The position numbers and the translations under genes are program-made. From assembly GCA_963821395.1 (NCBI GenBank), contig CAWGDY010000027.1, forward strand, positions 9,407 through 73,406: DNA of 64,000 nt, given 5' to 3'. The number at the start of each line of letters is the position of its first letter. Position 1 is the first letter of the stretch. Source of the stretch: Vicinamibacterales bacterium. Its GTDB lineage: Bacteria; Acidobacteriota; Vicinamibacteria; Vicinamibacterales; JAMQPK01. This document shows, in pieces, positions 8,001 through 55,271 of this stretch. The notes under the pieces were generated by a model, which saw nothing but the letters and a program-made list of their open reading frames with translations, was not told the origin of the DNA and did not search any database.

Positions 8001-11000
8001 TGGCGCCGACGCTGAGATTGGCCGTGGCCCCCGACGCGATGGTCTGACTTTGCGGCTGCGTCGTGATGCTCGCCGGGGTGCTGATGGCATCGGTCGTGAA
8101 CGACCAGGTTGGCCCGGTCACCGTCTGGTTCCCGTCGCTGACCGTCGCGTACCACTGGTACTGAGTATTCGGTGTCCGGCCAGCCCACGTGGTCTCGGCC
8201 GGAGTGCCTGACGGCACGCTGTTGTCCGTCCCGATCTGCGTGAACGGCACACCCTGCATGTTGAAGTCGAGCACGAACTGGCTGTTCGCGTCGGTCTCGA
8301 ACTGCAAGAGCTTCGGCGAGTACGTGTAGACGTAGATCTTGTTCTCGGACGGCTTGAAGGTCATGTAACGCAGCCAGCCGTCGCCGCCGTTCACACGGCT
8401 CTGGTAGTCGGACTCGAGCTGGTGAACCGTCCGGCTCGGGCAGGCCGCGTTGGTCGGCGTCGCATCCGATCGATTGGCCTCTCCCGGGTAGTGGCCGTTC
8501 AGGATGAGGAACACGTTGCAGTTCGGGACGATCAGATTGGTCCAGACCGTCGCGGCCGGCGTGCCATCCGTCGTCCGGTTGAGCACCGTCGTCGGACGGC
8601 TGCCCGAGTCGCTCAGGAACAGGTGCGTGGCGATGATGGCCTTGCGATTCGGGAATGCCTTGAGCACCCGGTCCGCCCACGCCACCGAATAGGTCGGCAT
8701 GTCGTACTCGAGGTGGATGACGACGAAGTCCATCCCGCCCACCGAGAAGAGCGAGTACTGATTCTTGTTCAGCCGGTTGATCGGATCGGTGAAGCTGAAC
8801 TGGTTCTGTCCAAGGTACCCGCCGTACCACGGGTACCCCGACATCCGGGATACGGGGAAGTACAGGTCATAGTTTGTCGACACGCCCGCCGAACTCATGT
8901 CGTGGTTGCCGGGAGCAATGCCGTACGGGACGGGGGGTGATGCGAGATCAAGTACGTCCATGCTCGCATCGGCCTTGGTCCACTCGGCGGGCTGAGCGTC
9001 GATGTGCTCGGCAATGTCGCCCAGGTGCGAGACGAACACGGTATTCAACGTTGGCCGGGAGCTGACGATCCACTGGGTCTGCTGGGTGAACGTCAGCGCG
9101 CGGTCTCCGTCGGCGTCGCTAGGATTGGTATCGTCGACATAATGCTGTGTGTCAGGGATGGCGACGATGGTGAAGTCACCCGCCGCCGCCGCGTTGGTGG
9201 CCCGGCCGAAGAACGTCACGTTCAGCGGCTGGCTCTCGGGATCCGAGACGTTGACGCTCAGGTTTGGTGCGTTGGTCTGGTCTGTGGCGCCATTCTCCGG
9301 CGTGTTCAACACCGGGAGATTCGGCGCCTGGTTGAAGACCAGGTTGAACGGCGCGCCGGCCGTGCGCGCCCAGCCGCTGCCGTTAATCGTGCCGTTGACC
9401 GGAATCGGGGTCGAGTCGAGGACAGTGGTCGTACTGCCGCTCTCGTTGAGACCCCAGCGCGCGACGAGGTTCGGCACGTTCAGGATTTGCTGGTTGATTC
9501 CCGCTTGAAGCTCCGACACGGTCAGCGCGCGATCCCAGATGCGCACTTCATCGATGACGCCGTTGAAGAAGCCTTCGGGTGTCCCGCTGGTGTTCAGCGC
9601 GGAACCGATCGAGGCATGCTGAATGCTGTCGAACCGGGGCGTGAAGGCACCCACCGCTGACGTGGCCTCGAGCGTGCCATCCAGGTACAAACGCCAGGTG
9701 CCGTCGCCGTAGGTCGCCGCGGCATGATGCCATGTGCCATCAGCGGGTATCGTCGTCACTCCCGCTATCGGGTGATTCAGGCCGGTATTGTTGTCCTCGA
9801 AATCGGCCGCCAGCACATCGCCGGTGGGGACGTCCTTGATGCCGAGGAAGAAGTTCATGTTGTTCGTGGTGGCTTCATCCTGAGCCCGGCCTTTGGCGAC
9901 GATCGGTATCGCCAGGAAGCCGCCGGTGCCCGTATCTGCCGGTGCGCCTTCGCCGTCGCGCTTGAACCATGCCTCGATCGTCATGGTCGAGACGCCCAGC
10001 CCGGGGGCTGCGCCAAAGGACACGTAGCCATTGGTTCCGGTGAAATCGATCGCGTTGTTTGGCTCGGTCGGATTCACGGTCACGGTGAGCTCATCAAATC
10101 CGTTGATCTCTCCGTCGGTGGCCGTCAGCCGAAGCACGTAGGTTCCAGGACCCGAGAAGGACGCCGTGGTCGTCGTCGTGTTCGGGTCATCGAATGTCAC
10201 GGTTCCAACGGCCGGCGTCTGGTTCGTCCATGTCGGGCTGACGTCGATGCCAGTGAAACCGTCGTCGTTCAGAGTTGCCGTGAGGGACGCATGGTTGGGC
10301 AGCGTGACGAACTGGTCCGCGCCGACGTTGACCATCGGCGGCAGATTGCCCGTGGCAGCCGTTACAGTAATGCTGACCGTGTCGCTGCGGACGTACTTGT
10401 TGTCGTCGACCGTCAACTGCAGAACATAGGTGCCGGCAGTGGTGAAGCCGACAGAGGTCACCGCGCTATTTGCGTTACCGAAGGCCGCGGCGGCCGGACC
10501 GCTCACCTGACTCCACGTGATCGTGTTCGGGCTGTCATCGGTGACGCTGCCGTTGAGTTCCGCCGCGCCGGCGTCGACTATTTGATCGGCGCCCGCGTTC
10601 ACGACGGGAGGCTGGCTGCCGGGCGCGCCGTGCACCGCGGCGGTGCCCGAATCGTTGAGTGCGTCGCCAGGGACCGGGATGAACTGCCAGTCGTACGACG
10701 AGTCGCGCAACGTGAACTTCATGATGCCGTGGTCGGTGTTGTTGCGAACTTCGCTGATCCCCGTCCTGAGATTTGGAAATGAACCGCTCACGGGGACGCC
10801 GCCGGTGCCGATGACGAACGTGCGGATACCGAAGGCGGGATCCGCGACGCCCAGCGCGTTCATCGGCGCCAGCCGCTCGTAGTTGTGCCAGTGGCCGCCG
10901 AGATAGATGTCGGTGCCGTAGTCGTAGAGGGCCTGCCACAGCGGCTGCGTGTACGCATGCATGTCGTCGTCGGAGCTGGAGCTGTAGCGCGGCCTGTGCC

Positions 11001-13968
11001 ACATCGCGATGATGTTGTTCGTCGGGCTGTTGGCGAGGTCGTCGCGCAGCCACTGTTCCTGTGGAGAACCTGCCGCGCATCCGTCTGCGTCCCAAAGCTC
11101 CGGCGACGCGCTGCACTCGCCGTTGAGGACAACGATGTGCCAGTTGCCGACGTTGTAGCTGTAGTAGCCGCCAAGCGTGCGATCGCCCGCGGGACCGTCC
11201 TGCACGCCATCGCCGTTGAAGTAGTCGTAATAGCCGGTCGCGCCCGGCGTGTTGTAGTCGTGATTGCCGGTCACCGGCCGCGTGCGCGCCTTGATGCCGG
11301 GACGGCCCCAGGTCGGCGTGTAGCAGGTGTCGAACTCGGCAGCCGTGCCGTTCACGTACGAGTTATCGCCGAGCGTGAACACCGGCCCTGGGAGCCCCTC
11401 GAGAAGCGTCGCGGTTGCGTTCGCGTTCGCGAGCGAATCTCCCGCGATACAGTTCGGCGCGACGTCTCCGGCGCCCAGCAGAATGAGGTTGACGGTGACC
11501 GTCATGTCGTCGAACGCCGATTTCGCGCCGTCGTCCGCAGTGAGGCGTAGCACATAGGTGCCCGCTTCCGTGAAGGTTGCGGTCGTGGCTGCCGAGGTGG
11601 CGCTGGCAAAGTTCACGACGCCAGGTCCGCTGACAAGCGTCCACAGGACGCCGAACGGGCCGTCATCGGTGGCAGCGCCGCTAAGCGTAGCGGTGCCGCC
11701 GAAGTCGATGACCCTGTCTGGCCCTGCCGTCACGATCGGGGTCTGATTCAGGCTCGCGAGGGGTGTCGCATCGTCTTCATTCGACGGTGCGGACGTATTG
11801 CCGAATCCGTCGACTGCGGTTACCACGTAGAAGTATTGAGTGCCATTCGCCGCGCCGAGATCGAGATAATTCGGCGACGTGACGAGAGTCGATCCATTGA
11901 GGGGAGCAATCGCTGTCGAGACGGGGCTCGTCAGGCTGCGATACACGTTGTAGCCCGCGAGATCCGACTCGGCATTCGCCGTCCATGTCAGCGAGACACG
12001 CGCGTTTAGTGGGTCAGCGAACAGGTTTTGCGGCGCCGCCGGCGGTGCGACATAGATAGGATACGGATAACCGGCGGTCCAGGTCGGCGTGCCGACCAGC
12101 GTACCGTTAATGGCCCTTGCGGAACCGGTCGCAACTAGGCCCGAAGCTTCGTTCAATGCCCAACGTCCAATCAGGGTGGGTTGCGTTGTCGGGTCGACCT
12201 CCTGAAACATCGAATTCTGAATTTGAACTTGGCTTCGCGCGACATTCCAGATTCGGACTTCGTCCATGAGGCCGTTGAAGAAGCCTGCCGCGGCCCCCGT
12301 CGATGTCATCGCAGTGCCGATACCAGCGTGCTGGATGCTGTCAAATCGTGGTGTGAAGGTGCCGAGAGTTGTCGTCTTCTCGAGTGCACCGTCGAGGTAG
12401 AGATTCCAGGTAGTCCCGTCGTACGTGACTGCCGCATGGTGCCAGGCAGTGGTGCTGATCGGGATTGGCGTTATGCCGGAAACGGGGTGATTGAGCCCGG
12501 TTCCCGTATCCTCGAAATCGGCGATAAGAACACCAGTTGTATCGTTGATGCCCAGAATGTAGTTCGTGTCCAGGTTGGAGCCGTCGGCCTGAGCCCTTCC
12601 CTTGGAGATCAACGGAATCGCGAGACCCGTAGTCGCATTCTCGAAGCCCCCGGCTCCGGTACTTGTTCCCACACCGAAGCCTGTCCGTTTAAACCAGGTT
12701 TCGATCGTAAAGGTTGAAGCGCCCAGAGCGCTTGTGCCGTCGGCGGGACCGAAAGTCACATACTGATTGATCCCATTGAATTGCATCGCTGCGCCTGCCA
12801 GCGCGTTTGGCGTTGCCACGACTGCGGTCGAAGGAGAGGAGAGATTGGCCGATGTATCGAGCGCCCTGACGGTGTAGCTGTAAAGCGTTCCGTTCGCGAC
12901 TGTGTTGTCCGTGAAGATTGCGCTTGTGAGAGGTGCGACGTTCAACGGTGTTCCGGAGCCGTTTCTGTACACGTTGTAGCCGGCCAGATCGAGCTCGGGA
13001 TTTTCAGGCCATGTGAGTGTAACCAGACCGTTGCCGATGTTCGCCGCGACGTTCTGCGGAACCGAGGGTGACACGCCATCCACAGGCAGAATATTTCCGA
13101 CGACTCGCCCCGGTCCGCTGACCAGCGTGCCATGCGGCCGGCCGGGGACTGAGTTGAGGGCCACTGAACCTGCGCCTTCGTTCAACCCCCAACGCCCGAT
13201 GAGCCCCGTGCCCGCGGTCACTTCCTTATACCTGTTGTCGGAGATTTCCTGCGCCGTGCGCGCGACGTTCCAGATACGGACCTCGTCGATCACGCCGTTG
13301 AAGAAACCGCCAGCGGTTCCGGCAGACGTGAGCGCGCTACCGATCGATGCGTGTTGAATGTTGTCGGAGCGTGGGATGCGCGTGCCCGTCGGCAGCGCCG
13401 GAACTGTGATGTTGCCAGGTAGAGCGACGCCGTTGAGATAGAGGGTAAAGATACCCGTTGAGCTGGTGTATGTCGCAGCGGCGTGATACCACGTGTTGTC
13501 ACTGATCGCTTGGGTCGAGGTGACCGCATGGTTGATTCCGGCTGCGGTATCTTCGAAATCGGCCGCCAGCGTATAGACGCCGGCCGAGAGACTTAATCCG
13601 AGGAAGTAGTTCATGTCGATGTTCGAACCGTCGCCTTCACCCCGTCCCTTCGCGACCAGCGGAACCGCTCCTCCTGATAAGCCGCCTCCGCCCGCTGCAC
13701 TGGTCGTCGTTGTCACGCCCGCGCCCTCTTTCTTGAACCAGAGTTCGAGCGTGAAGTCTGTCGCGTTGAGCCCGTTCGGACCCGTCGCTGGGCCGAACGT
13801 GATGTATTGATTCGCGGCTGTCGTTCCGAGGAAATCAATCGCATTTACAAATGTGGCGATCTGACCCGCCGGCCGGTCCCCGTTCATCAGCGCAAGGATG
13901 ACAACCGTAAGGATGCCGACACCAAAGCGCGTGGCAATGCTGAATCGGGCGCGGATGTACTGAGTCAT
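2068..13968 (-). CDS. giant secreted/surface multidomain protein: 3 LamG, FN3, PKD-like, 2 metallophosphoesterase domains, 13 Ig-like repeats, triplicated unassigned module with FN3
   Basis: A single intact ORF (2068..13983). The ATG at 13968 has GAGGA 8 nt upstream, and the N-terminus has a signal/anchor helix (FGVGILTVVILALMNG). LamG signatures occur three times (FTLELWFKK...FFNGVIDEVRIWNVART). FN3 units are present (LDLAGYNVYR...YSYTVRALD). PKD-like units are present (AGPDRVIDFGGTATLSGAATDD...GTYVLRLTADDG). Phosphoesterase motifs are present (GDNSY, GNHDY, GGHWHNYER; DTQHY, GNHDM, LNGHYPGE). Confidence 0.9.
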   Translation of the reverse strand: MTQYIRARFSIATRFGVGILTVVILALMNGDRPAGQIATFVNAIDFLGTTAANQYITFGPATGPNGLNATDFTLELWFKKEGAGVTTTTSAAGGGGLSGGAVPLVAKGRGEGDGSNIDMNYFLGLSLSAGVYTLAADFEDTAAGINHAVTSTQAISDNTWYHAAATYTSSTGIFTLYLNGVALPGNITVPALPTGTRIPRSDNIQHASIGSALTSAGTAGGFFNGVIDEVRIWNVARTAQEISDNRYKEVTAGTGLIGRWGLNEGAGSVALNSVPGRPHGTLVSGPGRVVGNILPVDGVSPSVPQNVAANIGNGLVTLTWPENPELDLAGYNVYRNGSGTPLNVAPLTSAIFTDNTVANGTLYSYTVRALDTSANLSSPSTAVVATPNALAGAAMQFNGINQYVTFGPADGTSALGASTFTIETWFKRTGFGVGTSTGAGGFENATTGLAIPLISKGRAQADGSNLDTNYILGINDTTGVLIADFEDTGTGLNHPVSGITPIPISTTAWHHAAVTYDGTTWNLYLDGALEKTTTLGTFTPRFDSIQHAGIGTAMTSTGAAAGFFNGLMDEVRIWNVARSQVQIQNSMFQEVDPTTQPTLIGRWALNEASGLVATGSARAINGTLVGTPTWTAGYPYPIYVAPPAAPQNLFADPLNARVSLTWTANAESDLAGYNVYRSLTSPVSTAIAPLNGSTLVTSPNYLDLGAANGTQYFYVVTAVDGFGNTSAPSNEDDATPLASLNQTPIVTAGPDRVIDFGGTATLSGAATDDGPFGVLWTLVSGPGVVNFASATSAATTATFTEAGTYVLRLTADDGAKSAFDDMTVTVNLILLGAGDVAPNCIAGDSLANANATATLLEGLPGPVFTLGDNSYVNGTAAEFDTCYTPTWGRPGIKARTRPVTGNHDYNTPGATGYYDYFNGDGVQDGPAGDRTLGGYYSYNVGNWHIVVLNGECSASPELWDADGCAAGSPQEQWLRDDLANSPTNNIIAMWHRPRYSSSSDDDMHAYTQPLWQALYDYGTDIYLGGHWHNYERLAPMNALGVADPAFGIRTFVIGTGGVPVSGSFPNLRTGISEVRNNTDHGIMKFTLRDSSYDWQFIPVPGDALNDSGTAAVHGAPGSQPPVVNAGADQIVDAGAAELNGSVTDDSPNTITWSQVSGPAAAAFGNANSAVTSVGFTTAGTYVLQLTVDDNKYVRSDTVSITVTAATGNLPPMVNVGADQFVTLPNHASLTATLNDDGFTGIDVSPTWTNQTPAVGTVTFDDPNTTTTTASFSGPGTYVLRLTATDGEINGFDELTVTVNPTEPNNAIDFTGTNGYVSFGAAPGLGVSTMTIEAWFKRDGEGAPADTGTGGFLAIPIVAKGRAQDEATTNNMNFFLGIKDVPTGDVLAADFEDNNTGLNHPIAGVTTIPADGTWHHAAATYGDGTWRLYLDGTLEATSAVGAFTPRFDSIQHASIGSALNTSGTPEGFFNGVIDEVRIWDRALTVSELQAGINQQILNVPNLVARWGLNESGSTTTVLDSTPIPVNGTINGSGWARTAGAPFNLVFNQAPNLPVLNTPENGATDQTNAPNLSVNVSDPESQPLNVTFFGRATNAAAAGDFTIVAIPDTQHYVDDTNPSDADGDRALTFTQQTQWIVSSRPTLNTVFVSHLGDIAEHIDAQPAEWTKADASMDVLDLASPPVPYGIAPGNHDMSSAGVSTNYDLYFPVSRMSGYPWYGGYLGQNQFSFTDPINRLNKNQYSLFSVGGMDFVVIHLEYDMPTYSVAWADRVLKAFPNRKAIIATHLFLSDSGSRPTTVLNRTTDGTPAATVWTNLIVPNCNVFLILNGHYPGEANRSDATPTNAACPSRTVHQLESDYQSRVNGGDGWLRYMTFKPSENKIYVYTYSPKLLQFETDANSQFVLDFNMQGVPFTQIGTDNSVPSGTPAETTWAGRTPNTQYQWYATVSDGNQTVTGPTWSFTTDAISTPASITTQPQSQTIASGATANLSVGATGTAPLTYQWYQGTAPDTTTLVGTNSANFTTPNLTTQTSYWVRVSNAFGPSVDSATATISIGVAPAIGTQPQSQTIASGATANLSVSATGTNLSYQWYRGTAPDTSNQVGTNSANFTTPNLATQTSYWVRVSNAFGPSVDSATATISIGVAAAIGTQPQSQTIASGATANLSVSATGTNLSYQWYRGTAPDTTNLVGSNSPNFTTPNLTTQTSYWVRASNAFGPSVNSATATISIGVGAAIDTQPQSQTIASGATANLSVGATGENLSYQWYQGPSGTTTTAVGTNSPNFTTPNLTVATSYWVRVSNSYGTVDSSAAVISIGVAAAIGTQPQSQTIASNTTANLSVGATGGNLIYQWYQGTAPDTTTAVGSNSPNFTTPNLTTETSYWVRVSNAFGPSLDSATATISIGVAAAIGTQPQSQTITTNTTANLSVGATGTNLTYQWYRGTAPDTTNLVGSNSPNFTTPNLTTQTSYWVRVSNAFGPSVNSATATISIGIAAAIGTQPQSQTIASGATANLSIGATGTNLSYQWYQGTAPDTSNAVGSNSSSFTTPNLTTQTSYWVRVSNAFGPSVNSATATISIGVAAAIGTQPQSQTIASNTTANLSVGATGTNLSYQWYRGTAPDTTSLVGSNSPNFTTPNLTTQTSYWVRVSNAFGPSVNSATATISIGVGAAISTHPQSQTIASGTTADLSVGATGENLSYQWYQGPSGTTTTAVGTNSANFTTPNLTTQTSYWVRVSNAFGAVNSSAATISIGVAAAIGTPPQNQTIASNATANLSVGATGTSLTYQWYQGTAPDTSNSVGTNSANFTTPNLTTQTSYWVRVSNAFGPSVDSATATISIGVAAAVGTPPQSQTITSGTSANLSVGATGTNLTYQWYRGTAPDTTNLVGSNSPNFTTPNLTTQTSYWVRVSNAFGPSVNSATATISIGVAAAIGTQPQSQTIASNTTANLSVGATGTNLTYQWYQGTSGTTTTPVGSNSANFTTPNLTTQTSYWVRVSNAFGPGVNSATATISIGVGPAIATQPQNQTIVSGATANLSVGATGTNLSYQWYQGPSGTTTTPVGANSANFTTPALTTQTSYWVRVSNAFGPSVDSSAATISITVAPPVTFTPLGVGTHFPTVDNADGPGPGPRAITPPAVQLGDMVVIVAAYGGTATLTMSETGGQAWTAEANTQANGQTVRVFWSQFNGTWTANPAVTNTTGTGPLTVYSFAVDLAPGTYPEIDVPFVSGNHSGGTVTVPSFSTSTPGALALVGWISADNNTWAAPTTGWSMPGGQAQWRNNSSADNTIALAYRNIASAGATGSIARTQTNGPDTGLYFRMAFKATQLTPATPPSDPANLLASASIGQVELTWTDTSTNEFAFQIERCTNPGCTNFAPLTGVGSNVTSYRDTTVAGTTTYRYRVRANNVFGPSEYSTSTDVTTPTPAFAFRGVGTHFPTVENADQGAGPGPRAIVPPASLQLGDLVVIVAAYQGTATLTLTETGGQIWTSETNTQANGQTVRVFWSQFNGVWTANPAVSNTTGTSPLTVYSMAFDMAPGLYPEIDVPFGSGSHSGGTVTVPSFTTNTTGVLALAGWISGDNNSWSAPTAGWSTPGGQAQWRNSNGSDSSVAFAYRLLGPAGPSGTIVRTQSASGPDTGIYFRLGFRALEVPSNPPGDPSDLQATPSVGQVALTWIDNANNEAGFNIERCAGIGCTNFLPLTVVGPNTASYNDNAVAGTTTYRYQVRAYNLFSPSNYSNIADALTPALPPPPPIPFTFRSVGSHYPTVDNTNGTGPGPRAVTPPATLQAGDLYVIVAAYRGNVTLSMAGTGGQTWNAESISQANGVTARVFWTRFNGTWAGTPSVTNTTGTEALSVYNFAFAMSAGMHPEIDVPVFSAGHSGGAVTVPSFATNTAGTLALAGWLSNENNSWSAPTTGWSVPGGQQQWRNTTGEDTSLAFAYRVFTAAGPTGSVVRSEGSGDDPGLYFRLAWKQVPD
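2071..4677 (-). repeat. three copies of an unassigned ~220-aa module (X1 4024-4677, X2 3052-3717, X3 2071-2733), separated by two FN3 units
   Basis: Shared blocks: GVGTHFPTV[DE]NA...GPGPRA[IV].PPA.LQ.GD[LM].VIVAAY.G..TL.[LM].[EA]TGGQ.W..E...QANG.T.RVFW..FNG.W...P.V.NTTGT..L.VY...F.[ML][AS].G..PEIDVP...G.HSGG.VTVPSF.T[NS]T.G.LAL.GW[IL]S..NN.W.APT.GWS.PGGQ.QWRN...D....AYR.....G..G...R......D.G.YFR[LM]. Confidence 0.85.
4678..8067 (-). repeat. 13 tandem ~261-bp coding repeats, each one Ig-like domain of ~87 aa
   Basis: Unit consensus: IGTQPQSQTIASGATANLSVGATGTNLSYQWY[QR]GTAPDTTN.VGSNS.NFTTPNLTTQTSYWVRVSNAFGPSV[ND]SATATISIGVAAA. It is counted 13 times in the translation. 3390 nt divided by 13 gives about 261 nt per unit. 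Copies are near-identical at DNA level. Confidence 0.9.
8270..9170 (-). other. metallophosphoesterase-like domain 2 within the giant protein (approximate bounds)
   Basis: Motifs IVAIPDTQHYVDD, HLGDIAEH, IAPGNHDM, ATHLFL and LILNGHYPGE are present. This second domain is more divergent. Confidence 0.6.
10780..11480 (-). other. metallophosphoesterase (calcineurin-like) domain 1 within the giant protein (approximate bounds)
   Basis: Motifs LGAGDVAP, FTLGDNSYVNG, VTGNHDYNTPG, MWHRPRYSS and YLGGHWHNYER appear in the canonical order. Confidence 0.75.
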
Positions 13969-14142
13969 CGGACAGGTCCTCAATTGATTGGGGGAGGCGG
14001 ACTATGGCCGCGGCTGCGCGGACGCGCAACTATTTGTGAAGGCACCATTGGATGTCCACGAAACCGGTCGATGGCGCGCATCGCACGCATCGCGCGCATG
14101 ACGCGCGTAGCGGAAGGACGGAAATTTAGGGGAGTTGACTGA

Positions 14143-14397
14143 CTACAGAAGGCCGAGGGCTCTTACGTAGCGGCGCGCTTCGCGGACGGGAATTCGAAAC
14201 ACGCGCTTGCGGCCCCGCCCGACGGGAACGGCGCGCAAGTATCCGTTGCAGATTTCCTTGCGGACGAACGTCGAGCTCATCCCGATCATGCCGGCGAGCT
14301 CGGCGGTGGTCAGCGGCGGGCCGGTCTTCTCGACCAGATCCTTCAGCCGCTGACTGACATCGGGTTGCCGGCGGGCGTGACCGTCCTGTCGCATCAA
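14143..14397 (-). CDS. small helix-turn-helix DNA-binding protein (excisionase/MerR-like HTH family)
   Basis: 84 aa. The HTH segment is PLTTAELAGMIGMSSTFVRKEICNGYLRAVPVGRGRKRVFRIPVREARRYV, typical of excisionase-family HTH domains. No recombinase gene is nearby. Confidence 0.65.
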   Translation of the reverse strand: MMRQDGHARRQPDVSQRLKDLVEKTGPPLTTAELAGMIGMSSTFVRKEICNGYLRAVPVGRGRKRVFRIPVREARRYVRALGLL

Positions 14398-14541
14398 GGC
14401 GTTTACAGGCAGTGCAGGATCGCTGCCGCCGGGACGTCTTCATTTCCGCTGATTTCAGGAGGGTTCGAATGGGGAGGTTCGCAAAGTCTGCTTCCAGGCA
14501 GACTTTGCGCTTCCCCGGGATGGGTCTACGGGCGGGCGCCT

Positions 14542-16298: not shown

Positions 16299-16369
16299 CG
16301 GGCTATGCCGACGGATTAGCCACGAACGGCTGGCCGGGGGAGCGGGCCGTCGCGTGACCGTGTGCTGGC

Positions 16370-16753
16370 CTACGCCGTCGCGATATCGGGACCCGCGGCA
16401 CGCAGGCGACCGAAGCCGGTCAGCTGACGCTTGGGAAGGTGCAGCCGGGCGCTCGCCTCGATCATCGCGAATCTCCCGGCGCCGGCAAACCGGACACGAT
16501 AGTGCCGGACGGTGCCGTGTGACGTATCGGGCATGACGGTCATGCACACGTCGGCTTCGTTCCGGTTGTCGACAAACTCGACGAAATCGATTTCCGGCTT
16601 GATCTCGTCTTCGAGCCAGGCGTCGCAATCCAGAAACACTTTCAGGTCGCGGGAATCGTATTGGCCGGTCATGTCGGCCTCTTGCCGGGCAATGGCGGCC
16701 CACGCCATCAACATGGCCCGCACGGGGGTAGACGTAACGGTGGTCGCAATCAT
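16370..16753 (-). CDS. small acidic hypothetical protein, paralog P1 of a 3-member family
   Basis: Start MIATTVTSTPVRAM, with GGAGAG 5 nt upstream. It is colinear with the ORFs at 21600..21977 and 26198..26539. Confidence 0.7.
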   Translation of the reverse strand: MIATTVTSTPVRAMLMAWAAIARQEADMTGQYDSRDLKVFLDCDAWLEDEIKPEIDFVEFVDNRNEADVCMTVMPDTSHGTVRHYRVRFAGAGRFAMIEASARLHLPKRQLTGFGRLRAAGPDIATA

Positions 16754-16859
16754 GCGCACTCTCCAGTCAGCATCGTTTTCGATGCTCGACAAGTTATAGC
16801 CAACACCGCATGAGGGCTCGATGAAGCAAGATCGTGACCAGCTTCACAAATCCTTCATG
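16754..16859 (-). promoter_or_regulatory. P1 leader hairpin, conserved 37-nt box and upstream CTTCA half-sites
   Basis: Box at 16790-16826 (plus strand): CAAGTTATAGCCAACACCGCATGAGGGCTCGATGAAG. On the coding strand it reads ...GTTGGCTATAACTTG with a -10-like TATAAC. The leader hairpin is AGCATCG-tttt-CGATGCT (16769-16786). The motif CTTCACaAAtcCTTCAT (about 16843-16859) is also conserved upstream of P2. Confidence 0.6.
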
Positions 16860-16974
16860 TTCCCGGCACGCGTTGGCTGCGGGCAGATCGCGACTTCTAA
16901 CGAAGGTGAGCGGGGGACTGCAGTCTATCCGCGGTGTCCGCGGCGTGTCCACGTTCTTTTTCAGTAAGCGGGTC

Positions 16975-17184
16975 TCATCGGAGATACGTGCGGAAGAAGC
17001 CCAGAGCGAAACCCAGAAGGGCGGCGAGCAAGAGCTGATAGTCCATCACTATCACAGTGGCGGCGACGCCGCTGCCCTCGCCGCTCTGCATGTGGAAGGC
17101 GCGGAAGACGCCTATGAGAACCCAGAGGACGATCACGACCGTGGCCGTGATGGCGCCGATGAGAAGGCTCTTGAAAAGCCGCAT
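16975..17184 (-). CDS. small two-helix membrane protein (hypothetical)
   Basis: 69 aa with two hydrophobic helices (LLIGAITATVVIVLWVLIGVF; LLLAALLGFALGFF). No clear SD sequence. Confidence 0.4.
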   Translation of the reverse strand: MRLFKSLLIGAITATVVIVLWVLIGVFRAFHMQSGEGSGVAATVIVMDYQLLLAALLGFALGFFRTYLR

Positions 17185-17273
17185 CGGAAAGCGGGTACTG
17201 TAACCCTGAATCGACGGGGCACGGCAGCCTTTTCATGGCCCCGTTTCGTCTAATTCCCCCGAGGAGGGTCCGC

Positions 17274-19684
17274 ATGAGCGGCATCGTTCAGGACCTGCGG
17301 TACGCGCTTCGCGGTTTGAGAAGAAACCCGGCGTTCACGTCGGTCGCGCTCGTCACCCTGGCGCTCGGCATCGGCGCCAACACGGCGATGTTCAGCGTGC
17401 TGAACGCCGTGCTGCTGAGGCCGCTTCCATATCCGGCTTCCCACGAGCTCGCGATGTTGTGGACGGAGCGGCCGAACCAGAACCTGCGCGAGGGGCGGTC
17501 GGCCTATCACGACGTCGAAGAATGGCGCGCGCGCAGCCGCACGCTGGCAGACGTCGGGGTTTTCGATCCGATGACGGCCAGGCTCACCGCGCCGGGTGAG
17601 CTGGAGCGAATCAGCACACTGAGGCTCTCGCCGAATGTCTTTGCGATCCTCGGCGTGCAGGCGTATCGGGGTCGCGTCTTCTCGACCCAGGAAGCCGACG
17701 AGCGGCGCAGGGTCGCCGTCGTCAGCTATCGATTCTGGCAGTCCCGCCTCGGCGGCGCCGACAACGTCATCGGCTCGACGATCGAGCTCGACGGCCTTCC
17801 GTCCGAAGTGATCGGTATCCTGCCCGCGGATTTCCGGTGGTCCGACTCAGACGTCTGGGAACCGCACACCCTGTTTCCCGACTGGGACGTACGTCGAGGT
17901 GAGCGTGGCGATGCGTCCTGGTTCGTGCTCGCGCGGTTGCGTCCCAACGTGACGATCGAGCAGGCGCAGGGAGAGCTGAGCGGCATCGCACGGGGTCTCG
18001 ACGAGCAGCGGATCGCGTCCGAGCAGGGACGCGGCATCGGCGTCATGCCGCTGAGCCTGCATATCGTCGGACCACGATGGCGGCTGACCCTGTGGATGCT
18101 GACGGGCGCGGTGTTCTTCGTCCTGCTCATCGGCGTGACGAACATCACGAGCCTGTCGCTGGCTCGCAGCACGGGACGCGCGCGCGAGTTCGCGTTGCGC
18201 GCGGCGCTTGGCGCGAGCCGCGGTCGCGTGCTGCGCCAGTTGTTTTCCGAAAGCCTGGTACTTGCCGTCCTTTCCGGACTTGGCCGGTCTCGCCGTTGCC
18301 TGGGTCGCACTTCCGATCATCGTGGCGTTCAAGCCGGCCGATCTCGTCACGCTGGGCGAGGTGCGACTCGACGTAGCCACTCTTGCGTGGACGCTGGGGC
18401 TGTCGATGCTCACCGGTGTGCTCGTGGGCCTCGTTCCCGCCATCACCATGACTCGCTGGAATCTTCAGGCGCCGCTGCACGAATCAGCCCGCGGGACGTC
18501 GGCGGGCGCTTCCGCGCGTCTTACGCGCCGCGCGCTCGTGGTGGCGGAATTCGCGCTGGCGATCGTGCTGCTCGTCGGCGCCGGGTTGCTGACGCGCAGC
18601 CTGATGAACGTGCAGCGCGTCAACCCTGGTTACAGCTCCGAGCGCGTGCTCTCGATGCAGCTCGCGATTCCACCAATCGACGCGACCAATCAGCGGGCTG
18701 ACTACTACCAACAGGTTTTGGATCGGGTCGTCAACACGCGCGGCGTCGAGGGCGCCGGCGTCATCGGCGATCTCTTCATCAATGCGAGCCCGGAACAGAG
18801 CGTGACGGTGGAAGGGAGCGCGCGAGGCGCCGAACGGTTGCGGCTGCGGCGCGACGAGGTGAGCGGCGGCCTGTTCGAAACGCTGCGGATTCCGCTCGTT
18901 CGCGGGCGTGCGTTCTCCTCGGAAGACGGGCCGAACGCTCCCAGGGCGGCGATCGTCAACGAAACGATGGCGCGCCGGCTGTGGCCGGGGCAGGATTCCG
19001 TCGGCAAACGATTCAAGATGGGTGTGACCTCGGCGGATGGTCCCTGGTTCACGGTAGTCGGCGTGGTCGGCGACGTGCGCCGGCAGGGGCTCGAAGAAGA
19101 ACCTGCCGCCCAGATGTTCGAGCCCGTGGCCCAGAATCCATCGCGGCTCGCGACGCTGCTGGTCCGCACCTCTGGCGAGCCCATCGCGATGGCTGCCACG
19201 CTCCGCGCGGCCATTCAGCAGATCGATCGGCGCGGGCTGGTGTACGGAGTGAACACGCTTGGCGCGCGCATCTCGGGATTCCAGGCGGAGCGGCGGTTCC
19301 AGACATGGTTGCTCATGGTGTTCTCGAGCCTCGCACTGCTCCTGGCCGCAATCGGTATCTACGGCGTGGTGCAGTACCTCGATTTCGACGCGCACGCGGG
19401 AAATCGGCGTGCGCATGGCGGTCGGCGCCGATCGTCGCGACATCTTCAAGATGGTGGTGGGGGAAGGGCTGAAGATGAGCCTGACCGGTCTGGCGCTCGG
19501 TCTCGTTGGGGCCCTGTGGCTGGGGCACCTGGGAGCGAGCCTGCTCTTCGGTGTCTCGTGGATGGACCCTGTGACCTACGTAGGCGTCTCGCTGCTTTTG
19601 ACGACGGTAGCGCTCGCCGGCTGCTATTTCCCAGCACGCCGCGCCGCGCGTATCGATCCGCTTGTAGCGCTCAAATACGAATAA
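17274..19684 (+). pseudogene. ADOP-type duplicated MacB/FtsX-like permease, disrupted by two 1-nt insertions
   Basis: Homology to the intact paralog (23792..26197) runs through three frames: ORF 17235..18701, then 18208..19734, then 19259..19684. The frame switches fall near 18279-18283 (cttgGcc) and 19377-19379 (tacCtcg). The N-terminus (LRYALRGLRRNPAFTSVALVTLALGIGANTAMFSV) and C-terminus (RRAARIDPLVALKYE) are family-typical. Confidence 0.8.
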
Positions 19685-19699
19685 ATTGGGTGCGGTGGC

Positions 19700-19717
19700 A
19701 CAGGGCTTCAGCCCTGT
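19700..19717. repeat. REP-like GC-stem tetraloop hairpin
   Basis: ACAGGGC-TTCA-GCCCTGT. Related copies lie at 22820, 22858 and 63773, plus a degenerate copy at 48848. Confidence 0.6.
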
Positions 19718-19718
19718 T

Positions 19719-19771
19719 GAGATTAGGAGACTAAGAGCGATTCTTCTTTCGAGAAGAATTCTCCTAATCTC
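19719..19771. terminator. nested palindrome between convergent genes (putative bidirectional terminator)
   Basis: The outer arms are GAGATTAGGAGA ... TCTCCTAATCTC. The inner hairpin is ATTCTTC-tttcga-GAAGAAT. It lies between the permease stop (19684) and the PhoX-like gene stop (19795). Confidence 0.55.
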
Positions 19772-19794
19772 CTAATCTCTTGTTGAGTCCCTCG

Positions 19795-21189
19795 CTACTT
19801 CGGAATCGTAAATTCGATGGTCCTGTCGTTGCCGCTCGATGGGTGCTGGATGTTCACCCAGCCTCTGCGCTTGTCGGTCGGGTCGAAATACAGGCCGGTG
19901 AATTCCGAGCCGCCTGTCCCGTTCGATGCCCAGCGGCCGATGCCTTCGCCCTGATCGGTCAAATCGCCGTCCTTGTTCAGATCCTTCGCGAACCAGATGT
20001 CGTCGTCGGAGCCGCCATTCCGGTCTTCGATGATGTAGATGTTTCCGTCGTGGTCGATGGCCAGATTGTCCGGGTTGGCCAGCGCCGTGCCCACCGCTGC
20101 GCCCGTGGCGAGATCGATGGTGTTTCGGTTCGCGAACACTGAGATCGTGTTGTTCTTGAGATCGATCCGGTAGACCTCGTGCGTCGTGGTCGTTGTCATG
20201 TAGAGATAGTCGACGCCGCTCAGCGTCTGGATTTGCAGATCCTCCGGGCGCTGGTAATCGGTTCCTTTGAAGGATGGCAGGTTGGTGGTGTTGCGGGCAT
20301 CCACCGACGTGACGCCGTTCGAGTCGGTGATCGTGAGCGCGCCTGGCAGGGGAGCGCCATTCACATCAGTGAACGGAACCCACGTGAAGGCTCCCGTCGC
20401 GTTCGCCACGCTCCCGTCGCCGACGCGCAAGACGAAGGTCTGTCCCGCAGCGAAGTAGTCGGCCTGACCGCCCTTGACCTTGCCGAAGTTGGCCGCCGAC
20501 GTGAACCTGTAGACGTTGCCGCCGTTGAGCTCATCGATGAAGTACATGTTGCCGGGCTTGTCGAACTGAACGCCCTCATGCGACGTGCGCGGGACGACGT
20601 TCCGATGCACGAAGTCGGCGCCCGCATTGCTCAGGCCTGTCACCGGGTTGAGGATGCCCGGGGCTTCGATCGGGTTCTTCAGCTCGAAGAGCCGGCCGTA
20701 GATTTGCGGATGTCCGACGTCGCCGAGGGTCGACCAGGACTCTTCGGCGGTAATCAGCGTTCCCCAAGGCGTCCAGTAACACGCGTCGAACGAGACATAG
20801 CGCCCTGCGGCCGGGCTTTGCCAGATCGTGTCGGTTACACCAGTCTCCAGGTCGTGGCGTTGCACGCCTGAATTGCCCGTCTCGAAGACGGTGAACAGGT
20901 AGCGGCCCTTGTGAGGTCCCGTCTCATTCACGGTGATCATGTCCCACGAACCCGAGTTCGGCTTGTTTGCGGCGAGCTGTGTGGTGCGCTCCGCAATGGA
21001 CTGCTGGTGAAAATCGGGATTGCCGAACGTGATGGGCTCGTCTTCGCTGAGGACGGGGATGGCAGGGGACGTTGAAGCGGTGAGCGGTGTGTAATCCGAG
21101 AATCGTGTGCCATCTGCGACGAGGACCGTTCCCGCAAGCACCAGACCTCCCACGGCGACGAGCCTCGCGCGATGAATCGGCATCTTCAT
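19795..21189 (-). CDS. secreted PhoX/DUF839-like beta-propeller protein
   Basis: Start MKMPIHRARLVAVGGLVLAG (signal peptide, GGAGA upstream). The C-terminal motif NPDNLAIDHDGNIYIIEDRNGG and the overall pattern resemble PhoX-type (DUF839) phosphatases. Assignment is by motif recognition only. Confidence 0.65.
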   Translation of the reverse strand: MKMPIHRARLVAVGGLVLAGTVLVADGTRFSDYTPLTASTSPAIPVLSEDEPITFGNPDFHQQSIAERTTQLAANKPNSGSWDMITVNETGPHKGRYLFTVFETGNSGVQRHDLETGVTDTIWQSPAAGRYVSFDACYWTPWGTLITAEESWSTLGDVGHPQIYGRLFELKNPIEAPGILNPVTGLSNAGADFVHRNVVPRTSHEGVQFDKPGNMYFIDELNGGNVYRFTSAANFGKVKGGQADYFAAGQTFVLRVGDGSVANATGAFTWVPFTDVNGAPLPGALTITDSNGVTSVDARNTTNLPSFKGTDYQRPEDLQIQTLSGVDYLYMTTTTTHEVYRIDLKNNTISVFANRNTIDLATGAAVGTALANPDNLAIDHDGNIYIIEDRNGGSDDDIWFAKDLNKDGDLTDQGEGIGRWASNGTGGSEFTGLYFDPTDKRRGWVNIQHPSSGNDRTIEFTIPK

Positions 21190-21439
21190 ATTCGATTTCT
21201 CCAGTCGCGCCAACAAGGGTTCGTGTGAACGTTGTCCCGCAGGCAGGCGGCTGGCGCGAACCTTCCTGTTCGGGGTACTCGACTCGTGCGCACAAGTCGG
21301 TCGACGAACCTAGTTATAGAAAGCGGATGTTGCGCGAGGGAGAATGGGACATCACGCGCGAGCAAAATTTCAGACGCGGGTTGTGTGGTGAATCCCGACA
21401 CCATGTCTGTGAAGCGACGACCGTGCGACGCAACGATCG

Positions 21440-21475
21440 TTCGGTGCGACAGGTGCGACAGGTGCGACAGGTGCG
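21440..21475 (-). repeat. tandem 9-mer array (CGCACCTGT-type, 4 units) about 250 nt upstream of the PhoX-like gene
   Basis: The plus strand reads ttcggtgcg acaggtgcg acaggtgcg acaggtgcg. Two further units lie at about 21520-21537 (ggatgcgat aggtgcgac). Confidence 0.8.
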
Positions 21476-21599
21476 TTGGGCTTGTCCGCCGGAGCGATGG
21501 GCGCCGTCTGCGCGGCGGCGGATGCGATAGGTGCGACTTACTTGTTGCGGTAGCGCAAGGGCGACGGCAGAGCTGGGGGCTGGCCGTCGCTTGTTGCAG

Positions 21600-21977
21600 T
21601 TACGCCGTCGCCGATGTCATGGCAGTGTGCAGACGAGGGAAGTGCACAACCCGGGGATGCGCCAGATGCACACGCGCGCTCGCCTCGATGAAGGCGAATG
21701 GCCCGGCGCCGACGAACCGCACGAGGTGCTGGCGGCCACCGCGTGAGATATCGGGTCTGACGGTCATGCAGAGGTCTGCCTCTTCGCGGTCATCGACATA
21801 CTCGACGAAGTCTTCATCGGACTTGACGTCGTCCTCGAGCCAGGTCTCGCAGTCGAGGTAGACCTTCAGGCGACGGATGCCGTCCTGGTCGTTCGCGGCG
21901 GCAAACTGCTGTGCAAGCGAGAGCCATCCCTGGACGAGGGCGTGAACGGGAGTGGACGTGGCGTCGGTGGTCAACAT
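21600..21977 (-). CDS. small acidic hypothetical protein, paralog P2
   Basis: 125 aa, MLTTDATSTPVHALVQGWLSLAQQF..., with GGAGAA upstream. It is colinear with P1 and P3. Confidence 0.7.
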   Translation of the reverse strand: MLTTDATSTPVHALVQGWLSLAQQFAAANDQDGIRRLKVYLDCETWLEDDVKSDEDFVEYVDDREEADLCMTVRPDISRGGRQHLVRFVGAGPFAFIEASARVHLAHPRVVHFPRLHTAMTSATA

Positions 21978-22085
21978 GCTCGTTCTCCAATCAGCATCAC
22001 TCGTCGATGCTGGAGCAAGTTATATCCAACGCCACATGAGGACTCGATGAAGCGCGTTGGGGGTGCGCTTCACGAATGCTTCATC
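21978..22085 (-). promoter_or_regulatory. P2 leader hairpin, conserved 37-nt box and upstream CTTCA half-sites
   Basis: Box at 22016-22052: CAAGTTATATCCAACGCCACATGAGGACTCGATGAAG. The leader hairpin is CAGCATC-actcgtc-GATGCTG (21992-22012). CTTCACgAAtgCTTCAT lies at about 22069-22085. An inverted repeat GAAGCGC ... GCGCTTC is visible on the coding strand. Confidence 0.6.
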
Positions 22086-22118
22086 TTTGCGACCCTGTGG
22101 TAAGGTCCTGTTTTCAGG

Positions 22119-22808
22119 ATGAACGACGAGGCGATTCTCAACGATCAGGTTGTGTACTACCGCGCACGCGCGGGCGAGTACGACCAGTGGTTCCTTCGCG
22201 AAGGCCGCTACGATCGCGGCGCCGGACACCGGGCGCAATGGTTTGGCGAGATCGCCACGATACGACGGGCGCTCAGCGAGTCAGTGAAGGATCGGAACGT
22301 GCTCGAGCTGGCGTGTGGCACGGGACTGTGGACCGAGCAGCTCGGACGGGAGAATCGCAGTGTCCTCGCCGTCGATGCTTCCCCCGAAGTCATCGCCATC
22401 AACCGGGACAGGGTGCACGCCGCGCACGTGCGGTACGAGACAGCAGACATCTTTTCCTGGACACCGCCCACGCTGTTCGATGCTGTCTTCTTTGCGTTCT
22501 GGCTCTCGCACGTCCCTGCGAGCCGGTTCGAGAGCTTCTGGCAGACCGTCAAAGCATCGGTCGAGCCTGGCGGGACGGTGTTCTTTGTCGACAGCCTGCT
22601 CGAGCAAACCTCGACCGCGACCGATCACGCACCAATAGACGACTCGGGTGTCGTCCGCCGGAAGCTGAACGACGGCCGCGAGTTCGAGATCGTGAAAATG
22701 TTTTACCAACCCGAAGAACTGGAACGGCGCCTCTCGCAACTGGGCTGGCAGGCCAGAGTGCAGTCGAGCGGGAAGTTCTTTCTGTTCGGCGAGTGCACGC
22801 GCGCGTAG
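22119..22808 (+). CDS. class I SAM-dependent methyltransferase
   Basis: 229 aa. Motif I is VLELACGTGLWTEQL, followed by the typical D-loop (AVDASPEVI) and motif IV region (FDAVFFAFWLSHV). Confidence 0.85.
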   Translation: MNDEAILNDQVVYYRARAGEYDQWFLREGRYDRGAGHRAQWFGEIATIRRALSESVKDRNVLELACGTGLWTEQLGRENRSVLAVDASPEVIAINRDRVHAAHVRYETADIFSWTPPTLFDAVFFAFWLSHVPASRFESFWQTVKASVEPGGTVFFVDSLLEQTSTATDHAPIDDSGVVRRKLNDGREFEIVKMFYQPEELERRLSQLGWQARVQSSGKFFLFGECTRA

Positions 22809-22819
22809 ACAGCGATCTG

Positions 22820-22877
22820 GCAGGACTGAAGTCCTGCACCACCGGCGAGAAGCTCGCGGCGGGACTAAAGTCCCGCC
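22820..22877. repeat. two REP-like tetraloop hairpins downstream of the methyltransferase
   Basis: GCAGGAC-TGAA-GTCCTGC (22820-22837) and GGCGGGAC-TAAA-GTCCCGCC (22858-22877). Confidence 0.65.
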
Positions 22878-22900
22878 CTACCGGGGATCGCCCAAGACTA

Positions 22901-22945
22901 CCGCACCCATGCACCTGTCGCACCTAACGCACCCATCGCACCTAT
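22901..22945 (+). repeat. tandem 9-mer array (5 units, CGCACCYNN) immediately upstream of the EamA gene
   Basis: ccgcaccca tgcacctgt cgcacctaa cgcacccat cgcacctat. The last unit overlaps a TATAAA (22943-22948) that ends 8 nt before the ATG at 22957. Confidence 0.8.
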
Positions 22946-22956
22946 AAACTCTCTTC

Positions 22957-23787
22957 ATGTCTCTCGGCATCCTTCTCGCCCTCGTCTCCGCCATGGTGTG
23001 GGGCAGTGGCGACTTTGTCGGCGGCGCCGCGACCAGGCGCAGCCACCAGTTTCAGGTCCTGGCCCTCTCGGCGCTCTCGGGCATCGTGCTGTTGACGATG
23101 CTCGCGTGGATCTTCGAGCCGCTTCCATCGCGTGCGAACGTGGCGTGGGCGGCCGCAGCCGGTCTGGTGGGCGCGGTCGGCATCGCCTCGCTCTATCACG
23201 GCCTGGCTATCGGCGGCGCGGCGATGGTGGCGCCGGTCGCGGCCGTCGTGACGGCGGCGATTCCCGCTGTTTACACGGCCTTTGCCGTTGCGCCGCCGAG
23301 TGCATGGCAGTTGGCCGGGTTTCTCGCGGCGGTCGCCGGCATCTGGCTCGTCACTCGCCAGCCGCAGACGGCCGAAGCACAGTCGCGCAAGGGCGTCAGC
23401 CAAGCCGTTGCCGCAGGAATCGGGTTCGGCGCTTTCCTGATTCTGATCGCACAGGTCGACCGCACGCTCGTGTTCGGCCCACTGGTCGTCGCGCGGACGG
23501 TCATGCTGGCCATGGGCCTTGTGCTGATGATCGTGCGCGGCATCAGCTTTCCCGGGCTGACGTCGAATCCGCTCGCGCTCGTAGCCGGTTTGCTCGACGC
23601 CGGCGGCAACATCTTCTTCGTGCTGGCGCGTCAGCATACGCGGCTCGACGTCGCCGCGGTGCTGTCGTCCCTGTATCCGGTCGCCACCGTCGTGCTGGCC
23701 CGCATCGTCTGGCGAGAGCCTGTCGCGCCGCAGCAATGGGCGGGCGTTGGAATGTGCCTGCTGGCAGTGGCCTTGATGGCAGAATGA
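22957..23787 (+). CDS. EamA/DMT-family transporter
   Basis: 276 aa with about 10 hydrophobic helices. The N-terminus is EamA-type (ILLALVSAMVWGSGDFVGGAATRR). Confidence 0.85.
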   Translation: MSLGILLALVSAMVWGSGDFVGGAATRRSHQFQVLALSALSGIVLLTMLAWIFEPLPSRANVAWAAAAGLVGAVGIASLYHGLAIGGAAMVAPVAAVVTAAIPAVYTAFAVAPPSAWQLAGFLAAVAGIWLVTRQPQTAEAQSRKGVSQAVAAGIGFGAFLILIAQVDRTLVFGPLVVARTVMLAMGLVLMIVRGISFPGLTSNPLALVAGLLDAGGNIFFVLARQHTRLDVAAVLSSLYPVATVVLARIVWREPVAPQQWAGVGMCLLAVALMAE

Positions 23788-23791
23788 GTCG

Positions 23792-26539: not shown

Positions 26540-26580
26540 GCGGCAAGTTATACCGAACCCCGCATGAGGGCTCGATGAAG
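26540..26580 (-). promoter_or_regulatory. P3 conserved 37-nt box lying 4 nt from the start codon
   Basis: Box at 26544-26580: CAAGTTATACCGAACCCCGCATGAGGGCTCGATGAAG. On the coding strand it reads TATAAC-ttgccgc-ATG, which predicts a leaderless or near-leaderless transcript. The P1/P2 leader hairpin is absent. Confidence 0.55.
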
Positions 26581-55104: not shown

Positions 55105-55271
55105 GCCAGATTCTAACGGCAGACCGCCGGAAAAGAGATAGTCCCGCGCCCGGGAGACAAAAGTCCGCATCCCGGTCTCGCCCACCGAACAGCGGCGCAA
55201 TTTGGGCCCGAACTCACGGCACGCACCGGCAGCAAGTTTGCCTAGGCAAACCACGTCTACCTCGTCCAAGG

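Follow-up and report, generated by a model that had tools for sequence, protein, structure and literature searches.

Why should a short piece of non-coding DNA be kept more faithfully than the genes that it precedes? This question is raised by three paralogous genes, termed here P1, P2 and P3, in a 64,000-nucleotide (nt) stretch of contig CAWGDY010000027.1 from a Vicinamibacterales bacterium, referred to throughout as the window. Each of the three genes is preceded by a copy of the same 37-nt box, and this box is real and strongly conserved. Sequence comparisons speak strongly for a promoter together with a protein-binding operator of some kind. More specifically, they favour a reading in which the box would be the core of a transcription-factor-dependent promoter, supplied once to each P gene copy.

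A first-pass annotation of the window had reported three copies of the box with 32 of 37 positions invariant. A degenerate 37-mer search of the window, allowing up to three mismatches, returns exactly these three (Table 1) and no other copy. All three match exactly, five positions vary among them, and 100 shuffles yield no match. The annotation had also held the box to be better conserved than the coding sequence (CDS), which is borne out: the copies are 86-92% identical among the window paralogs, against 64-76% for the CDS at the nucleotide level and 47-63% at third codon positions. The P1, P2 and P3 proteins are 53-64% identical to each other.

Conservation beyond the window was followed in 20 related loci, from which the region upstream of every P homolog was extracted; scans for the box and its surroundings cover the window plus these loci, 150.8 kb in all. 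With a profile of the 38-nt core, 25 hits in this set reach E<=0.01, all of them (25/25) directly upstream of a P homolog, and the next-best hits have E>0.2. In keeping with the annotation's expectation that a functional box would be conserved in orthologous loci and would not turn up in random contexts, the box is retained in orthologous and distantly paralogous loci alike, and within the ~151 kb it is found only upstream of P genes. It precedes P homologs from several genomes, including proteins 37-50% identical to those of the window (L009a/b, L013, L016 and L019a/b). Where the two proteins of a pair share under 65% identity, the mean identity is 85% in the box, 63% in the CDS and 50% at third codon positions. 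Tandem pairs of P genes occur in L019 (2092-2857) and L009 (2252-3113), and every copy has a box of its own. The box precedes nearly every sampled member of the P family.

Two coding explanations of this conservation were considered and rejected. A five-codon mini-open reading frame (mini-ORF; ATG..TAA) within the box is broken in L006 (ATC) and interrupted by premature stops in L016 and L003, and the variable sites of the box fall at its first and second codon positions; it was put down to the co-occurrence of CATG and TATAA. Conservation through an ORF that overlaps the box or runs antisense to it was set aside because the mechanically called ORFs stop at differing points in the box.

Alignment of the distinct upstream regions identifies the 37-nt box as the downstream half of a module of ~75 bp, which reads on the coding strand ATGAAG-N5-RTGAAG(C)-N13/14-(G)CTTCAT-N5-CCTCAT-GCGGnGTTnGn-TATAACT. 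One hexamer recurs in four copies, the upstream two in one orientation and the downstream two in the opposite one, and the resulting pairs face each other head-to-head. The hexamers of each pair are phased by 11 bp. Between the pairs lie 15-16 nt (from RTGAAG to CTTCAT), and 11 nt separate CCTCAT from TATAACT. CCTCAT is confirmed as a repeat of the CTTCAT unit by L013 and L016, in which hexamer 4 is a perfect CTTCAT. The window contains five exact CTTCAY-N5-CYTCAY matches, all within the modules (three on the coding strand and two inverted), and the related loci have the pattern solely in P modules.

Part of this pattern had been seen before. The first-pass annotation proposed inverted half-sites, formed by a motif inside the box and CTTCAC-N5-CTTCAT beyond it in P1 and P2. 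These half-sites are real, yet they belong to the larger four-hexamer pattern, and the second hexamer inside the box, CCTCAT, had gone unnoticed. The outer pair is present in both places (16842-16858 and 22068-22084) at a distance of 15 nt from the box rather than the 17 nt given, and it is absent from P3 of the window.

The internal geometry of the module is rigid. Counted from TATAAC, hexamer 3 begins at -28 and hexamer 4 at -17 in each of the 18 distinct upstream sequences long enough to include them, and hexamers 1 and 2 begin at -60/-49 or -61/-50. The spacer between the inner hexamers is 13-14 nt long and varies freely in sequence. The distance from TATAAC to the ATG, on the other hand, is 7, 24, 39-44 or 47 nt across the P homologs. 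What is fixed, then, is the spacing within the module and not its distance to the CDS, as expected of a promoter.

The upstream hexamer pair is missing from P3 of the window, from L008 and from the second P gene of L019, all of which keep hexamers 3-4 and TATAAC. In the window P3 and L008, a deletion of ~40 nt removed the pair relative to the P3 orthologs of L003, L010, L011 and L017. Judged by this distribution, the upstream pair is dispensable. In L019, hexamers 3-4 and TATAACT of the second P gene overlap the last codons and the stop of the first, and with this overlap the second box would act as an internal promoter.

The downstream end of the module resembles a -10 element. TATAACT is invariant in 17/17 distinct boxes, and in 16 of the 17 a G stands two bases 5′ of it (about -14), the base at -15 being variable. 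Against TATAAT, the hexamer TATAAC agrees at five of six positions, including the A at position 2; position 6 is C in all 17. The window has five copies of TATAACT versus 0.25 expected, a 20-fold over-representation; outside the boxes, one copy lies inside a 3971-aa ORF (2424-2430) and one upstream of a PhoX-like gene. The latter is conserved in orthologous loci without the hexamers, which suggests that TATAACT is a -10-type element used more generally in the lineage. At the -35 position no hexamer near TTGACA is found; TCGAGC stands there, with a 3/6 match, and is consistent with an activator-dependent or an extended -10 promoter. An activator-dependent promoter fits the final C of the -10-like hexamer, the TCGAGC and the lack of a call by a consensus promoter scan. 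A separate sigma-70-like match, TGGACA-18-TAGACT, is found on the minus strand at 16922-16951, ~55 nt upstream of P1 hexamer 1 and just past a co-directional small ORF with a hydrophobic C terminus; it occurs only in close P1 orthologs.

Where transcription would start can be judged from the distance between TATAAC and the ATG, which is 7 nt in P3, 39 nt in P1 and 41 nt in P2. The last two values agree with the leaders of 36-38 nt proposed for P1 and P2 when these are counted from the end of the box. The P3 spacing described by the annotation is seen in the window, and TATAAC-N7-ATG without a Shine-Dalgarno (SD) sequence recurs in 6/6 distinct P3-type sequences. Because the ATG follows exactly 7 nt after TATAAC and an SD is lacking, a leaderless mRNA is predicted for the P3-type genes. 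For Acidobacteria, a published prediction puts leaderless genes at about 13% and their TA-rich signal at ~12 nt before the start (PMC3160421). Like the leaderless mRNAs of Actinobacteria and Deinococcus and those predicted in Acidobacteria, the P3-type genes combine a TA-rich -10-like hexamer 7 nt before the AUG with the absence of an SD, and this arrangement is kept in every P3-type ortholog examined here. They differ in that the hexamer ends in C and not in T, and in that the same promoter type, with its predicted start, would also drive leadered paralogs within one genome. The promoter and leaderless reading put forward by the annotation fits the fixed geometry of the box, the variable ATG distance, the N7 spacing of the P3 type and the TATAACT at the PhoX-like gene.

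These features can be assembled into a tentative mechanism. A winged-helix regulator of the OmpR/PhoB type would occupy each direct-repeat pair as a dimer with its subunits head-to-tail. CTTCAT-N5-CCTCAT would lie on one helix face at about -40 to -24, in the usual place of the -35 element (with TATAAC taken as -12 to -7, hexamer 3 falls at about -40 to -35), and the bound regulator would recruit RNA polymerase in place of a -35 contact. An 11-nt spacer with the near-invariant G at about -14 would lead to the -10-like TATAAC(T), and transcription would begin ~7 nt downstream of TATAAC. The inverted upstream pair ATGAAG-N5-RTGAAG would be a second, accessory binding site that can be lost. In the P3 type, the ATG would coincide with the predicted +1 and produce a leaderless mRNA. 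In the P1 and P2 types, a short leadered mRNA would result, its first nucleotides forming a stable stem-loop that is followed by GGAGA.

A regulator of the OmpR/PhoB family is the leading, though tentative, candidate for the reader of the module. Every box contains CTTCAT-N5-CCTCAT, this spacing recurs in the upstream pair, and hexamer 4 ends 11 nt before TATAAC in 18/18 of the far-reaching distinct sequences. The spacer within the upstream pair is A/T-rich (GATTY) and that of the proximal pair is G+C-rich (CGAGY). PHO boxes are likewise built of 11-nt direct-repeat units, with the cores CTGTCAT in E. coli and GTTCACC in Streptomyces (PMC4415409, PMC2275107). The module shares several traits with PHO-box promoters (those of E. 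coli PhoB, Streptomyces PhoP and Salmonella PhoP/PmrA): two direct repeats with 11-bp periodicity, a TCAY core (CTTCAT/CTTCAC here, GTTCAC(C) in Streptomyces and CTGTCAT/TTGTCAC in E. coli), and repeats that run on the non-template strand toward the -10 and end 10-12 nt before it, in the place of the -35. The E. coli phoA promoter, CTGTCATAAAGTTGTCAC-N10-TATAGT, has the same orientation and spacing as the box. Extra upstream boxes are also common in these promoters. The differences are that the second pair is inverted here and not tandem, that the proximal spacer (CGAGC) is G+C-rich in place of A/T-rich, that the stretch between box and -10 is itself conserved, and that the window has no cognate regulator and a PhoX-like neighbour whose conserved promoter lacks the hexamers. 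That the factor is PhoB itself is doubtful.

Two distant loci have two-component genes next to the P gene, and these bear on which factor reads the module. The L013 module is flanked on one side by the P operon and on the other by a divergent operon for a secreted protein, an OmpR-type regulator and a histidine kinase, an arrangement also found with autoregulated two-component systems. Read on the other strand of this region, the upstream pair gives CTTCAT-N5-CTTAAT-N10-TAGAAT, a mirror-image promoter design; the consensus scan proposes TTGACC-17-AATCAT there instead. In L018, a histidine kinase binding cyclic nucleotide monophosphates is divergent from the P homolog, and the intergenic region contains GTTCAT-N5-GTTCAT (1009-1025), which adjoins TATAAA on the kinase strand. 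The tor boxes of TorR (CTGTTCATAT) sit in the torC-torR divergent region of E. coli. They resemble the module in consisting of four TTCAT-containing motifs upstream of an operon, one of them next to the -35 region, and in having a divergently encoded regulator, as in L013; they differ in being decamers in another arrangement, with no evidence of regulator homology. The only DNA-binding candidate of the window is an 83-aa ORF (14146-14394, minus strand) between an NHL propeller gene and the gene of the 3971-aa ORF, with a weak HTH_17 match (excisionase/MerR-like). Its identity among related loci is 64-74%, versus 94-98% for P1, and it is not a general partner of the module because it is confined to P1-orthologous loci. 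Literature searches on CTTCAT repeats and on Vicinamibacter promoters turned up nothing relevant.

The leader hairpin AGCATCG..CGATGCT and the GGAGA reported for P1 and P2, and not for P3, were all found in the window as described. Relatives beyond the P1 and P2 orthologs also have the hairpin, for example L019, where the stem GCAUCG/CGAUGC is kept; it is absent or unconvincing in L016, L009a/b and L013. Folding energies of -14.5 to -15.2 kcal/mol (z about -3) are obtained for the window P1 and P2 and the L004-type leaders, and 1-3 of 200 shuffles fold equally well. The L001 variant is weaker (-11.4 kcal/mol, z -0.7). Two inner stem pairs vary (G-C/G-U/A-U and C-G/U-G) in ways tolerated on the mRNA strand only, and the loop has 4 or 5 nt. 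Both features favour an RNA hairpin over a DNA operator. As the SD is not sequestered, the simplest explanation is a 5′ stabiliser, and the stem-loop probably acts as one. Hairpin 1 of E. coli ompA and the aprE leader of B. subtilis are similar in placing a stable stem-loop 0-1 nt from the (here predicted) +1 and a strong SD a few nt further on, free of the stem. They differ in that the GCAUCG/CGAUGC stem is conserved across distant relatives instead of drifting, and the role assigned to it here is a presumed one. A sequence-specific partner of the hairpin is possible, since the stem is conserved in sequence, in L019 as well, and does not covary freely.

Several observations weigh against a promoter activated by a response regulator with a stabilising leader. 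Sigma-70 promoters nearly always end their -10 hexamer in T, whereas the -10-like hexamer here ends in an invariant C, and the box is not called by a consensus sigma-70 promoter scan that requires T at position 6. Nowhere in the 64-kb window is an OmpR-family regulator encoded, and a tblastn search with the L013 regulator found none. The distant P homolog of L018 has no box in the core-profile scan, and the confinement of the box scan to ~151 kb bears on the size of any regulon. The stem of the hairpin keeps its sequence and does not covary freely. The absence of the hexamer pair from the adjacent PhoX-like gene speaks against a classical Pho regulon, and neither pst nor phoU is present in the window. 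Conservation extends to the spacers CGAG(C/T) and GCGG and to the TT at box positions 24-25, which exceeds the needs of a response-regulator box plus -10. This excess makes additional contacts or a different factor possible, and a symmetric repressor or a lineage-specific sigma factor would be a viable explanation of it.

The repressor is the alternative that survives best, though it is rather unlikely. The four hexamers would bind a dimer-of-dimers repressor on a constitutive, extended-minus-10-like TATAACT promoter; the repressor would cover -40 to -24, perhaps with looping to the upstream pair, and might be either a dedicated regulator or P acting on its own gene. The head-to-head palindrome with its length-constrained but sequence-variable spacer of 13-14 nt is typical of operators for symmetric oligomers, the G at -14 could make a -35 dispensable, and autoregulation would explain the near one-to-one association of boxes with P genes. 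The 11-bp-phased direct repeats in the -35 position, however, are more typical of activators. The P proteins themselves are also poor candidates for the repressor. P1-P3 are acidic (pI 4.4-5.6), match no Pfam family and have no helix-turn-helix or known DNA-binding fold; an AlphaFold model of P (pLDDT 77), consisting of one long helix and a beta-sheet, finds no significant match in PDB or in the viral database BFVD. An exhaustive profile search brings up 823 remote relatives (E down to about 1e-13), many of them longer and with the P domain near the N terminus. Of the long remote relatives, five were read, and all of them (5/5) start with a signal peptide; one, P0145, has a DUF481 region besides. 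A DNA-binding, autoregulatory role of P was rejected on its acidic pI and the absence of Pfam and PDB/BFVD matches.

An improbable alternative is that a lineage-specific sigma factor reads the block CGAGCCCTCATGCGG..GTTnGnTATAACT directly. It would account for near-complete conservation over -40 to -6, including positions that a response-regulator box leaves free, for the invariant C that ends the -10-like hexamer, atypical for a primary sigma factor, and for the silence of the sigma-70 scan at the box. It would leave the repeated hexamers and the inverted upstream pair unexplained, and at the PhoX-like gene TATAACT stands upstream with no other part of the box. No extracytoplasmic function (ECF; GGAAC..CGT), sigma-54 or sigma-28 pattern is present; GG and GC stand one base too close for sigma-54, and the GG varies. 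Sigma-54, sigma-28, ECF and Bacteroidetes-type promoters were all rejected on by-eye comparison with the aligned boxes, their spacing or key bases being a misfit.

Transcription could also start upstream of hexamer 1, so that the hexamers would form a long imperfect hairpin in a structured 5′ untranslated region, a riboswitch-like or protein-binding leader. This is very unlikely. RNAalifold does pair hexamer 1 with 4 and hexamer 2 with 3, the primary sequence is as highly conserved as in riboswitches, and a sigma-70-like match lies upstream of the P1 module (16951-16922). Yet across 13 distinct upstream regions, 0 of 14 pairs has a compensatory change and the covariation term is positive, that is, unfavourable. 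Rfam returns no match at the boxes in a gathering-score scan of the whole window or, at E<=1, in a scan of 16300-27000. Natural variants (window P3, L008 and L019b) lack the 5′ half, the ATG of the methyltransferase divergent from P2 is just 35 nt beyond hexamer 1, the P3-type genes have only 7 nt between TATAAC and ATG and no SD, and the sigma-70-like match is limited to P1 orthologs. A generic repeat, mobile-element end or recombination site that flanks the paralogs by chance is barely credible: three near-identical 37-mers in direct orientation do lie within 10 kb, but the box stands only at a fixed position upstream of P genes across genomes and contexts, persists where synonymous sites are saturated, has 0 matches in 2.9 million viral contigs, and has no transposase or integrase nearby.

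The activator-dependent promoter thus remains the favoured reading, and the genes that it would serve code for an uncharacterised family of small proteins. A profile search of 5.8 billion clustered proteins returns 40 clusters only; hits in species-representative genomes are limited to two metagenome-assembled genomes of Vicinamibacterales (Acidobacteriota), the others being soil metagenome contigs. A conserved ...ATA-COOH tail closes the P1-type and P2-type proteins and is lacking in the P3 type. The P gene is typically the first of its unit and is followed by an NHL/SGL beta-propeller gene; in distant relatives, a glycosyltransferase and an ABC exporter follow. P2 is probably monocistronic because the PhoX-like gene (19795-21216) has its own conserved TATAACT (21312-21318, minus strand) and a leader. 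This leader of ~125 nt (21187-21320) is almost invariant in L004 and L017 and may be structured.

Table 1. Coordinates in the window of the P genes and of the elements upstream of them.
Feature	Position	Strand	Remarks
P1 CDS	16370-16753	minus	127 aa, no Pfam family
P1 Shine-Dalgarno GGAGAG	16759-16764	minus	GGAGA 16760-16764
P1 leader stem-loop AGCAUCG-AAAA-CGAUGCU	16769-16786	minus	begins at predicted +1
P1 37-nt box	16790-16826	minus	
P1 -10-like TATAACT	16792-16798	minus	invariant in all 17 distinct boxes; G two bases upstream in 16 of 17
P1 hexamer 4 CCTCAT	16810-16815	minus	11-bp phase with hexamer 3; ends 11 nt before TATAAC
P1 hexamer 3 CTTCAT	16821-16826	minus	5′ end of box; inverted relative to hexamers 1-2
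P1 hexamer 2 GTGAAG	16842-16847	minus	11-bp phase with hexamer 1
P1 hexamer 1 ATGAAG	16853-16858	minus	
P2 CDS	21600-21977	minus	125 aa
P2 Shine-Dalgarno GGAGA	21984-21988	minus	
P2 leader stem-loop CAGCAUCG-ACGAG-UGAUGCUG	21992-22012	minus	
P2 37-nt box	22016-22052	minus	hexamer 3 22047-22052, hexamer 4 22036-22041, TATAACT 22018-22024
P2 hexamer 2 GTGAAG	22068-22073	minus	
P2 hexamer 1 ATGAAG	22079-22084	minus	
P3 CDS	26198-26539	minus	113 aa; ATG 7 nt past TATAAC, no SD
P3 37-nt box	26544-26580	minus	hexamer 3 26575-26580, hexamer 4 26564-26569, TATAACT 26546-26552

Other repeats and structures lie close to the P genes. Immediately upstream of the P3 box, at 26589-26612, is a perfect 9-bp inverted repeat, AGAGTCATC-N6-GATGACTCT. 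It is found further upstream in the P3 orthologs of L017, L010, L011 and L008 and not in L003. As no T-run follows, it is not an obvious terminator, and it may be another operator. The intergenic region between P2 and the PhoX-like gene contains tandem 9-nt repeats (CGCACCTGT and variants) at ~21440-21475 (minus strand), which vary in copy number among the window, L004 and L017. Directly after the stop of the NHL gene, at ~14500-14530, the 83-aa ORF is preceded by a strong hairpin, GCAAAGTCTGC-N6-GCAGACTTTGC.

Further features of the window are unrelated to the box. A cyclic di-AMP riboswitch (ydaO/yuaA type, 65.5 bits, full-length) at 1742-1887 (minus strand) is found upstream of a mechanically called ORF (750-1913) with an SPFH/Band 7 domain. 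Three ORFs are giant: 2068-13983 (minus strand, 3971 aa), with 13 Ig_7 repeats, Laminin_G_3, PKD and a calcineurin-like phosphoesterase domain; 26809-32811 (plus strand, 2000 aa), with Ig, Laminin_G_3 and DUF11 domains; and 55008-60878 (plus strand, 1956 aa). A MacB-like permease is apparently split into overlapping ORFs in different frames (17235-18701 and 18208-19734, both plus strand). MacB-like neighbours and relatives are single proteins of ~800 aa (23792-26197; L017), and L014 has two adjacent MacB-like genes. The split could be due to a frameshift, a pseudogene or an assembly error.

Taken at the level of sequence, the element is most probably a lineage-specific promoter/operator module, of a familiar kind and not a new mechanism. 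Its value is practical rather than conceptual, since the mechanism class is ordinary. A far-reaching version of the story, and a long shot, would have the module and the P family form a closed, lineage-specific Vicinamibacterales circuit, in which evolution has toggled leaderless and hairpin-leadered output in paralogs of one genome. The reader of this four-hexamer palindromic operator, restricted to P genes, would be a dedicated two-component system, such as the one encoded beside the L013 module, or P itself via an undescribed DNA-binding fold. If true, this circuit would allow the two modes of translation initiation to be compared in a natural setting in Acidobacteria.

Vicinamibacterales is an abundant but rarely cultured order of soil Acidobacteria whose promoters and regulons are almost unstudied. 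For this order, cross-locus comparison provides a validated motif consensus, CTTCAY-N5-CYTCAT-N11-TATAACT, with an optional inverted upstream pair. The motif can be used to define the regulon, to fish for the regulator, to anchor predictions of transcription starts and to compare leaderless with leadered expression driven by a single promoter. Its presence also singles out the P proteins as what would be a tightly regulated family that heads operons for secreted beta-propeller proteins.

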